Source: Escherichia phage T7
Reading direction: 5' to 3' (one strand)
Sequence record: PV223880.1
Length of the DNA: 36,016 bases
The number at the start of each line of letters is the position of its first letter. Positions within the stretch are counted from its first letter, which is position 1. A program made the translations under genes and the position numbers. Below the pieces are notes generated by a model. It saw nothing but the letters and a program-made list of their open reading frames with translations, was not told where the DNA came from and made no database searches. Shown here piece by piece: positions 15,714-36,016 of the stretch.

Positions 15714-16013
15714 ATGGGTAAGAAAGTTAAGAAGGCCGTGAAGAAAGTCACCAAGTCCGTTAAGAAAGTCGTTAAGGAAGGGGCTCGTCCGGTTAAACAG
15801 GTTGCTGGCGGTCTAGCTGGTCTGGCTGGTGGTACTGGTGAAGCACAGATGGTGGAAGCACCACAAGCTGCCGCACAGATTGTTGACGTACCTGAGAAAG
15901 AGGTTTCCACTGAGGACGAAGCACAGACAGAAAGCGGACGCAAGAAAGCTCGTGCTGGCGGTAAGAAATCCTTGAGTGTAGCCCGTAGCTCCGGTGGCGG
16001 TATCAACATTTAA
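15714..16013 (+). CDS. 7.3: gene 7.3 tail-associated protein (99 aa)
   Basis: MGKKVKKAVKKVTKSVKKVVKEGARPVKQVAGGLAGLAGG... Confidence 0.9.
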   Translation: MGKKVKKAVKKVTKSVKKVVKEGARPVKQVAGGLAGLAGGTGEAQMVEAPQAAAQIVDVPEKEVSTEDEAQTESGRKKARAGGKKSLSVARSSGGGINI

Positions 16014-16026
16014 TCAGGAGGTTATC

Positions 16027-16326
16027 GTGGAAGACTGCATTGAATGGACCGGAGGTGTCAACTCTAAGGGTTATGGTCGTAAGTGGGTTAATGGTAAACT
16101 TGTGACTCCACATAGGCACATCTATGAGGAGACATATGGTCCAGTTCCAACAGGAATTGTGGTGATGCATATCTGCGATAACCCTAGGTGCTATAACATA
16201 AAGCACCTTACGCTTGGAACTCCAAAGGATAATTCCGAGGACATGGTTACCAAAGGTAGACAGGCTAAAGGAGAGGAACTAAGCAAGTACTACAGCGTAA
16301 GACATGGAGACACATTTAATGGCTGA
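16027..16326 (+). pseudogene. 7.7: Gene 7.7 (HNH endonuclease-like) with internal frameshifting deletion; 99 codons instead of about 130
   Basis: GTG start; EDCIEWTGGVNSKGYGRKWVNGKLVTPHRHIYEE...HICDNPRCYNIKHL...GEELSK then out-of-frame tail YYSVRHGDTFNG*, ending 7 nt past the gene 8 ATG. Confidence 0.75.
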
Positions 16327-17929
16327 GAAACGAACAGGACTTGCGGAGGATGGCGCAAAGTCTGTCTATGAGCGTTTAAAGAACGACCGTGCTCCCTATG
16401 AGACACGCGCTCAGAATTGCGCTCAATATACCATCCCATCATTGTTCCCTAAGGACTCCGATAACGCCTCTACAGATTATCAAACTCCGTGGCAAGCCGT
16501 GGGCGCTCGTGGTCTGAACAATCTAGCCTCTAAGCTCATGCTGGCTCTATTCCCTATGCAGACTTGGATGCGACTTACTATATCTGAATATGAAGCAAAG
16601 CAGTTACTGAGCGACCCCGATGGACTCGCTAAGGTCGATGAGGGCCTCTCGATGGTAGAGCGTATCATCATGAACTACATTGAGTCTAACAGTTACCGCG
16701 TGACTCTCTTTGAGGCTCTCAAACAGTTAGTCGTAGCTGGTAACGTCCTGCTGTACCTACCGGAACCGGAAGGGTCAAACTATAATCCCATGAAGCTGTA
16801 CCGATTGTCTTCTTATGTGGTCCAACGAGACGCATTCGGCAACGTTCTGCAAATGGTGACTCGTGACCAGATAGCTTTTGGTGCTCTCCCTGAGGACATC
16901 CGTAAGGCTGTAGAAGGTCAAGGTGGTGAGAAGAAAGCTGATGAGACAATCGACGTGTACACTCACATCTATCTGGATGAGGACTCAGGTGAATACCTCC
17001 GATACGAAGAGGTCGAGGGTATGGAAGTCCAAGGCTCCGATGGGACTTATCCTAAAGAGGCTTGCCCATACATCCCGATTCGGATGGTCAGACTAGATGG
17101 TGAATCCTACGGTCGTTCGTACATTGAGGAATACTTAGGTGACTTACGGTCCCTTGAAAATCTCCAAGAGGCTATCGTCAAGATGTCCATGATTAGCTCT
17201 AAGGTTATCGGCTTAGTGAATCCTGCTGGTATCACCCAGCCACGCCGACTGACCAAAGCTCAGACTGGTGACTTCGTTACTGGTCGTCCAGAAGACATCT
17301 CGTTCCTCCAACTGGAGAAGCAAGCAGACTTTACTGTAGCTAAAGCCGTAAGTGACGCTATCGAGGCTCGCCTTTCGTTTGCCTTTATGTTGAACTCTGC
17401 GGTTCAGCGTACAGGTGAACGTGTGACCGCCGAAGAGATTCGGTATGTAGCTTCTGAACTTGAAGATACTTTAGGTGGTGTCTACTCTATCCTTTCTCAA
17501 GAATTACAATTGCCTCTGGTACGAGTGCTCTTGAAGCAACTACAAGCCACGCAACAGATTCCTGAGTTACCTAAGGAAGCCGTAGAGCCAACCATTAGTA
17601 CAGGTCTGGAAGCAATTGGTCGAGGACAAGACCTTGATAAGCTGGAGCGGTGTGTCACTGCGTGGGCTGCACTGGCACCTATGCGGGACGACCCTGATAT
17701 TAACCTTGCGATGATTAAGTTACGTATTGCCAACGCTATCGGTATTGACACTTCTGGTATTCTACTCACCGAAGAACAGAAGCAACAGAAGATGGCCCAA
17801 CAGTCTATGCAAATGGGTATGGATAATGGTGCTGCTGCGCTGGCTCAAGGTATGGCTGCACAAGCTACAGCTTCACCTGAGGCTATGGCTGCTGCCGCTG
17901 ATTCCGTAGGTTTACAGCCGGGAATTTAA
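16319..17929 (+). CDS. 8: Portal (head-tail connector) protein (gene 8), 536 aa
   Basis: MAEKRTGLAEDGAKSVYERLKNDRAPYETRAQ... to ...SVGLQPGI. Confidence 0.98.
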   Translation: MAEKRTGLAEDGAKSVYERLKNDRAPYETRAQNCAQYTIPSLFPKDSDNASTDYQTPWQAVGARGLNNLASKLMLALFPMQTWMRLTISEYEAKQLLSDPDGLAKVDEGLSMVERIIMNYIESNSYRVTLFEALKQLVVAGNVLLYLPEPEGSNYNPMKLYRLSSYVVQRDAFGNVLQMVTRDQIAFGALPEDIRKAVEGQGGEKKADETIDVYTHIYLDEDSGEYLRYEEVEGMEVQGSDGTYPKEACPYIPIRMVRLDGESYGRSYIEEYLGDLRSLENLQEAIVKMSMISSKVIGLVNPAGITQPRRLTKAQTGDFVTGRPEDISFLQLEKQADFTVAKAVSDAIEARLSFAFMLNSAVQRTGERVTAEEIRYVASELEDTLGGVYSILSQELQLPLVRVLLKQLQATQQIPELPKEAVEPTISTGLEAIGRGQDLDKLERCVTAWAALAPMRDDPDINLAMIKLRIANAIGIDTSGILLTEEQKQQKMAQQSMQMGMDNGAAALAQGMAAQATASPEAMAAAADSVGLQPGI

Positions 17930-19045: not shown

Positions 19046-20083
19046 ATGGCTAGCATGACTGGTGGACAGCAAATGGGTACTAACCAAGGTAAAGGTGTAG
19101 TTGCTGCTGGAGATAAACTGGCGTTGTTCTTGAAGGTATTTGGCGGTGAAGTCCTGACTGCGTTCGCTCGTACCTCCGTGACCACTTCTCGCCACATGGT
19201 ACGTTCCATCTCCAGCGGTAAATCCGCTCAGTTCCCTGTTCTGGGTCGCACTCAGGCAGCGTATCTGGCTCCGGGCGAGAACCTCGACGATAAACGTAAG
19301 GACATCAAACACACCGAGAAGGTAATCACCATTGACGGTCTCCTGACGGCTGACGTTCTGATTTATGATATTGAGGACGCGATGAACCACTACGACGTTC
19401 GCTCTGAGTATACCTCTCAGTTGGGTGAATCTCTGGCGATGGCTGCGGATGGTGCGGTTCTGGCTGAGATTGCCGGTCTGTGTAACGTGGAAAGCAAATA
19501 TAATGAGAACATCGAGGGCTTAGGTACTGCTACCGTAATTGAGACCACTCAGAACAAGGCCGCACTTACCGACCAAGTTGCGCTGGGTAAGGAGATTATT
19601 GCGGCTCTGACTAAGGCTCGTGCGGCTCTGACCAAGAACTATGTTCCGGCTGCTGACCGTGTGTTCTACTGTGACCCAGATAGCTACTCTGCGATTCTGG
19701 CAGCACTGATGCCGAACGCAGCAAACTACGCTGCTCTGATTGACCCTGAGAAGGGTTCTATCCGCAACGTTATGGGCTTTGAGGTTGTAGAAGTTCCGCA
19801 CCTCACCGCTGGTGGTGCTGGTACCGCTCGTGAGGGCACTACTGGTCAGAAGCACGTCTTCCCTGCCAATAAAGGTGAGGGTAATGTCAAGGTTGCTAAG
19901 GACAACGTTATCGGCCTGTTCATGCACCGCTCTGCGGTAGGTACTGTTAAGCTGCGTGACTTGGCTCTGGAGCGCGCTCGCCGTGCTAACTTCCAAGCGG
20001 ACCAGATTATCGCTAAGTACGCAATGGGCCACGGTGGTCTTCGCCCAGAAGCTGCTGGTGCAGTGGTTTTCAAAGTGGAGTAA
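19046..20083 (+). CDS. 10A: Major capsid protein 10A, 345 aa
   Basis: MASMTGGQQMGTNQGKGVVAAGDKLALFLKVFGGEV... ends KVE*. Confidence 0.98.
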   Translation: MASMTGGQQMGTNQGKGVVAAGDKLALFLKVFGGEVLTAFARTSVTTSRHMVRSISSGKSAQFPVLGRTQAAYLAPGENLDDKRKDIKHTEKVITIDGLLTADVLIYDIEDAMNHYDVRSEYTSQLGESLAMAADGAVLAEIAGLCNVESKYNENIEGLGTATVIETTQNKAALTDQVALGKEIIAALTKARAALTKNYVPAADRVFYCDPDSYSAILAALMPNAANYAALIDPEKGSIRNVMGFEVVEVPHLTAGGAGTAREGTTGQKHVFPANKGEGNVKVAKDNVIGLFMHRSAVGTVKLRDLALERARRANFQADQIIAKYAMGHGGLRPEAAGAVVFKVE

Positions 20084-20241
20084 TGCTGGGGGTGGCCTCA
20101 ACGGTCGCTGCTAGTCCCGAAGAGGCGAGTGTTACTTCAACAGAAGAAACCTTAACGCCAGCACAGAAGGCCGCACGCACCCGCGCTGCTAACAAAGCCC
20201 GAAAGGAAGCTGAGTTGACTGCTGCCACCGCTGAGCAATAA
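19046..20241 (+). CDS. 10B: Minor capsid protein 10B, made by -1 ribosomal frameshift near the 3' end of 10A
   Basis: Slippery ggttttc at 20065-20071; -1 frame continues ...QSGVMLGVASTVAASPEEASVTSTEETLTPAQKAARTRAANKARKEAELTAATAEQ* to stop at 20239-20241. Confidence 0.85.
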
Positions 20242-20244
20242 CTA

Positions 20245-20290
20245 GCATAACCCCTTGGGGCCTCTAAACGGGTCTTGAGGGGTTTTTTGC
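20245..20290 (+). terminator. Tphi: T7 RNAP terminator Tphi
   Basis: ccccttggggcctctaaacgggtcttgaggggttttttg hairpin plus U-run. Confidence 0.95.
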
Positions 20291-20306
20291 TGAAAGGAGG
20301 AACTAT

Positions 20307-20897
20307 ATGCGCTCATGCGATATGAACGTTGAGACTGCCGCTGAGTTATCAGCTGTGAACGACATTCTGGCGTCTATCGGTGAACCTCCGGTATCAACGC
20401 TGGAAGGTGACGCTAACGCAGATGTAGCGAACGCTCGGCGTATTCTCAACAAGATTAACCGACAGATTCAATCTCGTGGATGGACGTTCAACATTGAGGA
20501 AGGCATAACGCTACTACCTGATGTTTACTCCAACCTGATTGTATACAGTGACGACTATTTATCCCTAATGTCTACTTCCGGTCAATCCATCTACGTTAAC
20601 CGAGGTGGCTATGTGTATGACCGAACGAGTCAATCAGACCGCTTTGACTCTGGTATTACTGTGAACATTATTCGTCTCCGCGACTACGATGAGATGCCTG
20701 AGTGCTTCCGTTACTGGATTGTCACCAAGGCTTCCCGTCAGTTCAACAACCGATTCTTTGGGGCACCGGAAGTAGAGGGTGTACTCCAAGAAGAGGAAGA
20801 TGAGGCTAGACGTCTCTGCATGGAGTATGAGATGGACTACGGTGGGTACAATATGCTGGATGGAGATGCGTTCACTTCTGGTCTACTGACTCGCTAA
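20307..20897 (+). CDS. 11: Tail tubular protein A (gene 11), 196 aa
   Basis: [35 protein letters not shown]... Confidence 0.95.
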
Positions 20898-20920
20898 CAT
20901 TAATAAATAAGGAGGCTCTA

Positions 20921-23305
20921 ATGGCACTCATTAGCCAATCAATCAAGAACTTGAAGGGTGGTATCAGCCAACAGCCTGACATCCTTCGTTATCCAGACCA
21001 AGGGTCACGCCAAGTTAACGGTTGGTCTTCGGAGACCGAGGGCCTCCAAAAGCGTCCACCTCTTGTTTTCTTAAATACACTTGGAGACAACGGTGCGTTA
21101 GGTCAAGCTCCGTACATCCACCTGATTAACCGAGATGAGCACGAACAGTATTACGCTGTGTTCACTGGTAGCGGAATCCGAGTGTTCGACCTTTCTGGTA
21201 ACGAGAAGCAAGTTAGGTATCCTAACGGTTCCAACTACATCAAGACCGCTAATCCACGTAACGACCTGCGAATGGTTACTGTAGCAGACTATACGTTCAT
21301 CGTTAACCGTAACGTTGTTGCACAGAAGAACACAAAGTCTGTCAACTTACCGAATTACAACCCTAATCAAGACGGATTGATTAACGTTCGTGGTGGTCAG
21401 TATGGTAGGGAACTAATTGTACACATTAACGGTAAAGACGTTGCGAAGTATAAGATACCAGATGGTAGTCAACCTGAACACGTAAACAATACGGATGCCC
21501 AATGGTTAGCTGAAGAGTTAGCCAAGCAGATGCGCACTAACTTGTCTGATTGGACTGTAAATGTAGGGCAAGGGTTCATCCATGTGACCGCACCTAGTGG
21601 TCAACAGATTGACTCCTTCACGACTAAAGATGGCTACGCAGACCAGTTGATTAACCCTGTGACCCACTACGCTCAGTCGTTCTCTAAGCTGCCACCTAAT
21701 GCTCCTAACGGCTACATGGTGAAAATCGTAGGGGACGCCTCTAAGTCTGCCGACCAGTATTACGTTCGGTATGACGCTGAGCGGAAAGTTTGGACTGAGA
21801 CTTTAGGTTGGAACACTGAGGACCAAGTTCTATGGGAAACCATGCCACACGCTCTTGTGCGAGCCGCTGACGGTAATTTCGACTTCAAGTGGCTTGAGTG
21901 GTCTCCTAAGTCTTGTGGTGACGTTGACACCAACCCTTGGCCTTCTTTTGTTGGTTCAAGTATTAACGATGTGTTCTTCTTCCGTAACCGCTTAGGATTC
22001 CTTAGTGGGGAGAACATCATATTGAGTCGTACAGCCAAATACTTCAACTTCTACCCTGCGTCCATTGCGAACCTTAGTGATGACGACCCTATAGACGTAG
22101 CTGTGAGTACCAACCGAATAGCAATCCTTAAGTACGCCGTTCCGTTCTCAGAAGAGTTACTCATCTGGTCCGATGAAGCACAATTCGTCCTGACTGCCTC
22201 GGGTACTCTCACATCTAAGTCGGTTGAGTTGAACCTAACGACCCAGTTTGACGTACAGGACCGAGCGAGACCTTTTGGGATTGGGCGTAATGTCTACTTT
22301 GCTAGTCCGAGGTCCAGCTTCACGTCCATCCACAGGTACTACGCTGTGCAGGATGTCAGTTCCGTTAAGAATGCTGAGGACATTACATCACACGTTCCTA
22401 ACTACATCCCTAATGGTGTGTTCAGTATTTGCGGAAGTGGTACGGAAAACTTCTGTTCGGTACTATCTCACGGGGACCCTAGTAAAATCTTCATGTACAA
22501 ATTCCTGTACCTGAACGAAGAGTTAAGGCAACAGTCGTGGTCTCATTGGGACTTTGGGGAAAACGTACAGGTTCTAGCTTGTCAGAGTATCAGCTCAGAT
22601 ATGTATGTGATTCTTCGCAATGAGTTCAATACGTTCCTAGCTAGAATCTCTTTCACTAAGAACGCCATTGACTTACAGGGAGAACCCTATCGTGCCTTTA
22701 TGGACATGAAGATTCGATACACGATTCCTAGTGGAACATACAACGATGACACATTCACTACCTCTATTCATATTCCAACAATTTATGGTGCAAACTTCGG
22801 GAGGGGCAAAATCACTGTATTGGAGCCTGATGGTAAGATAACCGTGTTTGAGCAACCTACGGCTGGGTGGAATAGCGACCCTTGGCTGAGACTCAGCGGT
22901 AACTTGGAGGGACGCATGGTGTACATTGGGTTCAACATTAACTTCGTATATGAGTTCTCTAAGTTCCTCATCAAGCAGACTGCCGACGACGGGTCTACCT
23001 CCACGGAAGACATTGGGCGCTTACAGTTACGCCGAGCGTGGGTTAACTACGAGAACTCTGGTACGTTTGACATTTATGTTGAGAACCAATCGTCTAACTG
23101 GAAGTACACAATGACTGGTGCCCGATTAGGCTCTAACACTCTGAGGGCTGGGAGACTGAACTTAGGGACCGGACAATATCGATTCCCTGTGGTTGGTAAC
23201 GCCAAGTTCAACACTGTATACATCTTGTCAGATGAGACTACCCCTCTGAACATCATTGGGTGTGGCTGGGAAGGTAACTACTTACGGAGAAGTTCCGGTA
23301 TTTAA
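20921..23305 (+). CDS. 12: Tail tubular protein B (gene 12), 794 aa
   Basis: MALISQSIKNLKGGISQQPDILRYPDQGSRQVNGW... Confidence 0.97.
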   Translation: MALISQSIKNLKGGISQQPDILRYPDQGSRQVNGWSSETEGLQKRPPLVFLNTLGDNGALGQAPYIHLINRDEHEQYYAVFTGSGIRVFDLSGNEKQVRYPNGSNYIKTANPRNDLRMVTVADYTFIVNRNVVAQKNTKSVNLPNYNPNQDGLINVRGGQYGRELIVHINGKDVAKYKIPDGSQPEHVNNTDAQWLAEELAKQMRTNLSDWTVNVGQGFIHVTAPSGQQIDSFTTKDGYADQLINPVTHYAQSFSKLPPNAPNGYMVKIVGDASKSADQYYVRYDAERKVWTETLGWNTEDQVLWETMPHALVRAADGNFDFKWLEWSPKSCGDVDTNPWPSFVGSSINDVFFFRNRLGFLSGENIILSRTAKYFNFYPASIANLSDDDPIDVAVSTNRIAILKYAVPFSEELLIWSDEAQFVLTASGTLTSKSVELNLTTQFDVQDRARPFGIGRNVYFASPRSSFTSIHRYYAVQDVSSVKNAEDITSHVPNYIPNGVFSICGSGTENFCSVLSHGDPSKIFMYKFLYLNEELRQQSWSHWDFGENVQVLACQSISSDMYVILRNEFNTFLARISFTKNAIDLQGEPYRAFMDMKIRYTIPSGTYNDDTFTTSIHIPTIYGANFGRGKITVLEPDGKITVFEQPTAGWNSDPWLRLSGNLEGRMVYIGFNINFVYEFSKFLIKQTADDGSTSTEDIGRLQLRRAWVNYENSGTFDIYVENQSSNWKYTMTGARLGSNTLRAGRLNLGTGQYRFPVVGNAKFNTVYILSDETTPLNIIGCGWEGNYLRRSSGI

Positions 23306-23806: not shown

Positions 23807-24397
23807 ATGTGTTGGGCAGCCGCAATACCTATCGCTATATCTGGCGCTCAGGCTATCAGTGATCAGAACGCTCAGGCCAAAATGATTGCCGCTCAGACCG
23901 CTGCTGGTCGTCGTCAAGCTATGGAAATCATGAGGCAGACGAACATCCAGAATGCTGACCTATCGTTGTCAGCTCGAAGTAAACTTGAGGAAGCGTCCGC
24001 CGAGTTGACCTCACAGAACATGCAGAAGGTCCAAGCTATTGGGTCTATCCGAGCGGCTATCGGAGAGAGTATGCTTGAAGGTTCCTCAATGGACCGCATT
24101 AAGCGAGTCACAGAAGGACAGTTCATTCGGGAAGCCAATATGGTAACTGAGAACTATCGCCGTGACTACCAAGCAATCTTCGCACAGCAACTTGGTGGTA
24201 CTCAAAGTGCTGCAAGTCAGATTGACGAAATCTATAAGAGCGAACAGAAACAGAAGAGTAAGCTACAGATGGTTCTGGACCCACTGGCTATCATGGGGTC
24301 TTCCGCTGCGAGTGCTTACGCATCCGGTGCGTTCGACTCTAAGTCCACAACTAAGGCACCTATTGTTGCCGCTAAAGGAACCAAGACGGGGAGGTAA
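23807..24397 (+). CDS. 14: Internal core protein B (gene 14), 196 aa
   Basis: ATG at 23807 after aaaggagga RBS; MCWAAAIPIAISGAQAISDQNAQAKMIAAQTAAGRRQ... Confidence 0.93.
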   Translation: MCWAAAIPIAISGAQAISDQNAQAKMIAAQTAAGRRQAMEIMRQTNIQNADLSLSARSKLEEASAELTSQNMQKVQAIGSIRAAIGESMLEGSSMDRIKRVTEGQFIREANMVTENYRRDYQAIFAQQLGGTQSAASQIDEIYKSEQKQKSKLQMVLDPLAIMGSSAASAYASGAFDSKSTTKAPIVAAKGTKTGR

Positions 24398-35856: not shown

Positions 35857-36016
35857 TCTCACAGTGTACGGACCTAAAGTTCCCCCATAGGGGGTACCTA
35901 AAGCCCAGCCAATCACCTAAAGTCAACCTTCGGTTGACCTTGAGGGTTCCCTAAGGGTTGGGGATGACCCTTGGGTTTGTCTTTGGGTGTTACCTTGAGT
36001 GTCTCTCTGTGTCCCT
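35857..36016 (+). repeat. Right direct terminal repeat (160 bp)
   Basis: Identical to bases 1-160. Confidence 0.95.

Follow-up and report, generated by a model that had tools for sequence, protein, structure and literature searches.

INTRODUCTION

In wild-type bacteriophage T7 (NC_001604), gene 7.7 occupies 19848-20240 and gene 8, the portal gene, 20240-21850, so that the stop codon of the first and the start codon of the second share one base in the sequence TAATG. The gene 7.7 product (NP_041994, 130 aa), which ends in ...KKLTESDVLAIRSSTLSHRSLGELYGVSQSTITRILQRKTWRHI, is classed from its sequence as an HNH_3 endonuclease-like protein with a predicted activity. Yuan et al. 2022 (Nucleic Acids Res, PMC9825161) place gp7.7 among the removable genes of T7, and describe a "cassette-100" design in which a 100-bp fragment is deleted, so that a gene is disrupted with little loss of genome.

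A reduced-genome T7, T7-B, was described in 'Programming virulent bacteriophages by developing a multiplex genome engineering method' (mBio 2025, PMC12153263), with accession PV223880 in Table S1, a genome of 36.0 kb and a reduction of 9.8%. In that study gp0.4-0.7, 1.4, 1.7, 3.8, 4.3-4.7, 5.3 and 7.7 were removed "seamlessly" from BAC-cloned segments by Red-ccdB recombineering with single-stranded oligos carrying two 40-nt homology arms each, and gp7.7 was deleted on segment F8. Table S2 gives the gp7.7 deletion as 20,109-20,208 (100 bp) and, for the nonessential regions and deletion coordinates, refers to Yuan et al. 2022. Table S7 is the source of the sequence of oligo HA-gp7.7, and in Figure S8 the deletions of the reduced-genome phages are analysed by PCR. 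The phage with all seven deletions formed plaques comparable to those of wild type, and its burst size was 197±9 against 224±9. Moreover, a 3-kb cargo at the 7.7 locus was stably maintained, with infection about as good as that of T7-B (PMC12153263).

Here we analysed a stretch of 36,016 nucleotides of T7 DNA (the window), with emphasis on gene 7.7 and its border with gene 8.

RESULTS

A clean 100-bp deletion shifts the frame of gene 7.7

An initial annotation of the window, made from the sequence alone, had read gene 7.7 as carrying a frameshifting deletion of roughly 100 bp, and had proposed a reference alignment. Aligned with NC_001604, the window lacks exactly 100 of the 393 bp of the gene, corresponding to T7 nt 20109-20208, and the junction lies at 16287/16288. 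When the window was aligned jointly with NC_001604 and PV223883, its positions 16000-16360 showed a single clean 100-column gap and were otherwise identical. The placement of this gap is unambiguous, as it cannot be shifted by one base, and no microhomology was seen in the alignment at the gene 7.7 breakpoints (left ...GCAAG/AAACT..., right ...GCGAA/TACTA...). The junction AAG/TAC is flanked by ...CTAAGCAAG on its left and TACTACAGCG... on its right. The features of the locus are as follows.

16016-16021, plus strand: ribosome-binding site of gene 7.7, AGGAGG, intact (sequence)
16027-16326, plus strand: disrupted gene 7.7 ORF, 99 aa, GTG start at 16027 (ORF list and sequence)
16027-16287, plus strand: retained wild-type gene 7.7 codons 1-87 (T7 nt 19848-20108), including the HNH_3 domain (alignment, Pfam)
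16248-16327, plus strand: footprint of the 80-nt oligo HA-gp7.7 with its two 40-nt homology arms (exact match)
16287/16288, no strand: deletion junction AAG/TAC (alignment), also the cargo-insertion point in T7-B-G and T7-B-GJ
16288-16318, plus strand: retained 3′ stub of gene 7.7 (T7 nt 20209-20239), 31 nt (sequence, alignment)
16306-16309, plus strand: putative Shine–Dalgarno sequence of gene 8, GGAG, nine bases before the ATG (role suggested by sequence and spacing)
16319-17929, plus strand: gene 8 (portal, head-tail connector), unchanged (ORF list, NC_001604)
16324-16326, plus strand: new in-frame TGA of the frameshifted gene 7.7 ORF (sequence, ORF list)

Because 100 bp is not a multiple of three, the reading frame shifts after codon 87. 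The resulting product of 99 aa consists of wild-type residues 1-87 (through GEELSK) and 12 frameshifted residues, YYSVRHGDTFNG; the C-terminal 43 residues of gp7.7 are lost, and the 12 that stand in their place are unrelated to them. A wild-type gp7.7 that itself had 99 aa and this C-terminus would have overturned the reading of a deletion, but the wild-type protein is longer by the whole missing tail and ends differently. The stop codon moves 7 nt downstream, from TAA at 16317-16319 to TGA at 16324-16326. The new stop begins 5 nt beyond the start of gene 8 (ATG, 16319), and the frame derived from gene 7.7 overlaps gene 8 by 8 nt (ATGGCTGA) in place of the wild-type 1-nt overlap. The wild-type TAATG persists at 16317-16321, out of the gene 7.7 frame. 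Thus the initial annotation, which had described the retained HNH-like N-terminal part, the switched tail, the stop beyond the portal ATG and the TAATG arrangement both in wild type and out of frame here, is supported in all elements of its frameshifting-deletion reading. The disrupted frame is contained in a longer listed ORF, 15994-16326; in the sister records of the window, the depositors annotate no CDS at the disrupted 7.7 ORF.

In comparison with wild-type gene 7.7, the start codon, the ribosome-binding site, the first 87 residues and the HNH_3 domain are all identical, and the window differs in the C-terminal part and the position of the stop codon. Pfam places HNH_3 (PF13392) at residues 29-70 in both proteins, with scores of 49.8 bits for wild type and 51.1 bits for the 99-aa product, both above the gathering cutoff of 24.8 bits. 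Matches of the deleted C-terminal third to helix-turn-helix families are weak and sub-threshold (E = 0.014-0.28). The 99-aa HNH remnant is probably still translated. For users of T7-B, the 7.7 "deletion" leaves an expressible HNH-domain ORF that reaches 8 nt into the portal gene.

The window corresponds to the engineered phage T7-B

Removing from NC_001604 in silico the seven Table S2 intervals other than gp19.5 gave exactly 36,016 bp, and an ungapped position-by-position comparison of this reconstruction with the window gave 19 single-base differences; gp19.5, though in Table S2, is intact in the window. BLAST against NC_001604 shows the window to be a T7 genome, complete from one terminal repeat to the other, with seven internal deletions, the segment offsets of which agree with the reconstruction. 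Both ends carry the 160-bp terminal repeat of T7 (1-160 and 35857-36016), hence the window is a linear genome in full, not a piece of one. In the sister records these repeat ends are named 'cohesive-end site'. Oligo HA-gp7.7 has one exact match in the window, where none would be expected by chance, and the boundary between its arms falls at the junction.

The sister constructs lead to the same identification. Outside an insert of 829 bp the window is the same as T7-B-J (PV223883), and outside an insert of 1587 bp the same as T7-B-G (PV223881); the prefix and suffix that it shares with each of the two jointly cover the entire window, and T7-B-GJ (PV223882) has a common backbone with it. The insert of T7-B-G, a PT7-His-lysGH15 cassette that begins TAATACGACTCACTATAGG, sits exactly at the AAG/TAC junction, between ...CTAAGCAAG and TACTACAGCG..., which means that the junction serves both as a knockout and as a designed landing site. 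In the cargo-bearing derivatives the 7.7 ORF ends at a TAA of the inserted T7 promoter. With the T7-B chassis as published (PV223880, mBio 2025, PMC12153263), the window has in common the length of 36,016 bp, the seven deletion intervals, the HA-gp7.7 oligo and, outside the inserts, identity with the sister constructs T7-B-J, T7-B-G and T7-B-GJ; these comparisons revealed no difference from the chassis. On the reconstruction and the sister records, we consider it almost certain that the window is the entire genome of T7-B, a synthetic phage with a reduced genome, and that its 7.7 deletion is a deliberate knockout.

For this phage, construct identity, coordinates, oligo and the use of the junction for insertion are established, and so is its viability, with plaques close to those of wild type. 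Its construction was by two-round Red-ccdB recombineering on the BAC-cloned T7 segment F8: an amp-ccdB cassette at the 7.7 site was swapped for the single-stranded oligo of 80 nt, in which two 40-nt arms join T7 nt 20108 to 20209, after which the segments were assembled and the phage rebooted. The junction was afterwards the landing site of inserted cargo, namely firefly luciferase, inserts of 3 kb and PT7-His-lysGH15. The exact coordinates 20109-20208 probably derive from a cassette-100 design, as suggested by the size of 100 bp and by the citation of Yuan et al. 2022 in Table S2. The CiPGr cassette-100 of that paper is likewise a designed 100-bp deletion within a gene, made in vivo by CRISPR-Cas9 with 50-bp homology arms, whereas T7-B was made by Red-ccdB with 40-nt arms on a BAC clone (PMC9825161).

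The junction is found in engineered phages

When the gene 7.7 region was compared by megablast with 50,697 phage records, about 100 T7 records carried the extra 100 bp and only PV223883, "Mutant Escherichia phage T7 clone recombinant T7-B-J", matched in one piece. A 32-nt junction probe had 0 matches in IMG/VR, and in the same 50,697 records the contiguous junction occurs in the engineered PV223883 alone; a natural origin of the 7.7 junction was rejected on these results.

Passage easily costs T7 some of its nonessential genes, and other deletions are found in many T7 records (lengths of 35.8-39.1 kb), so it could be supposed that a spontaneous deletion made 7.7 a pseudogene in a natural or lab-passaged lineage. 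However, the endpoints are exactly the published design coordinates and those of the 80-nt oligo, six more designed deletions lie in the same genome at published coordinates, the junction has no microhomology, and neither IMG/VR nor any non-engineered phage record contains it. Because of this match to the design, the companion deletions, the lack of microhomology and the absence outside engineered records, spontaneous deletion is excluded, with a residual probability that we regard as negligible. The supposition that the gap is a sequencing or assembly artefact, and that the real phage has an intact 7.7, has nothing specific in its favour. The same junction is present in T7-B-J, it is the exact insertion point in the separately deposited T7-B-G and T7-B-GJ, the total length agrees with the design to the base, and the deletions were analysed by PCR in Figure S8 of PMC12153263. 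As the junction is found in independent sister genomes and was used for insertion, an artefact is also excluded, and we give it next to no chance.

Thus the lesion is deliberate, as its coordinates and oligonucleotide are the same as those of the published gp7.7 knockout; this origin is a point beyond the earlier sequence-only reading, and the 7.7 deletion is a real but already known, published engineering scar. Since the genome is a synthetic construct, its deletions and frameshifts should not be taken for natural phage evolution, and the importance of the identification is mainly one of bookkeeping.

Context of the gene 8 start

Retention of the 31 nt upstream of gene 8 means that the portal gene keeps its own Shine–Dalgarno sequence, as the position and spacing of GGAG at 16306-16309 suggest that it is the portal gene's own ribosome-binding site. 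The last 31 nt ahead of gene 8 would have been left in place by design, and we infer that this stub was kept on purpose, sparing gene 8 translation. The TGA 5 nt inside gene 8 is a chance by-product of the shifted frame.

RNA folding of the region from -60 to +30 of the gene 8 start gave no significant structure in either the wild-type or the T7-B context; predicted folding is weak and alike in the two contexts (-13.2 versus -13.7 kcal/mol, z-scores 0.07 and -1.42). A regulatory hairpin made or removed by the deletion was therefore dropped as a candidate.

Might the lesion matter beyond the loss of 7.7, through a shift of upstream termination from TAATG to the TGA within gene 8 that alters translational coupling and portal level, or through an active 99-aa HNH remnant, and lower the burst? 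The intact ribosome-binding site and start of 7.7 and the fully kept HNH_3 domain would allow this, and the T7-B burst is ∼12% under that of wild type (PMC12153263). On the other hand, gene 8 still has its own GGAG, the weak folding predicted at its start differs little between the two contexts, the plaques resemble those of wild type, and six other deletions confound the difference in burst. Moreover, large cassettes at the junction wholly uncouple 7.7 from gene 8 and the phages are still viable. Such side effects are in our view improbable. An incomplete knockout, in which a stable HNH-only protein of 99 aa has residual, untargeted nuclease or DNA-binding activity, or a separate, measurable alteration of portal translation by the new 8-nt overlap with gene 8, is similarly doubtful; if the remnant were active or portal translation altered, the site preferred for cargo in the T7-B chassis would carry an activity that was not intended. 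Nothing points to a serious disturbance of portal expression, because T7-B plaques and burst are near wild type and 3-kb cargo is stable, these phenotypes being known for all seven deletions combined.

Other differences from wild-type T7

The further engineered deletions have the following junctions in the window, the last five with coordinates from Table S2 of PMC12153263.

1256/1257: gp0.4-0.7 deletion, which reaches into gene 0.3 (ocr, 925-1278), its first missing base being T7 nt 1257
6127/6128: gene 1.4, 156 bp
6560/6561: gene 1.7, 536 bp
9094/9095: gene 3.8, 291 bp
10814/10815: genes 4.3-4.7, 1019 bp
13000/13001: gene 5.3, 338 bp

Truncated or fused ORFs at the 1.4, 1.7, 3.8, 4.3-4.7 and 5.3 sites are engineering scars too. 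The ocr ORF (925-1320 in the window) has 131 aa compared with 117; its last 7 codons are lost, and in their place the ORF runs, in a shifted frame, into what remains of gene 0.7. Depositors of the sister records annotate no gp0.3 CDS.

The substitutions relative to NC_001604 lie at 4830, 7781, 11458, 15859, 18854, 20167, 20218, 20317, 20425, 23114, 23862, 23969-23970, 25337, 27870, 31054, 31333, 31337 and 33488. An amino acid is changed by 16 of the 17 substitutions in tabulated genes, and the remaining one is silent (gene 16 A399A). Examples are Y59H in 1.2, D197N in 5, V49A in 7.3, R276S in 9, Y4C and A40V in 11, T118A, K211E and R212Q in 17, and Q14K in 19. The adjacent pair at 23969-23970 jointly turns codon 55 of gene 14 from Gln to Ser, and the substitutions at 20167 and 20218 lie within the gene 10B extension.
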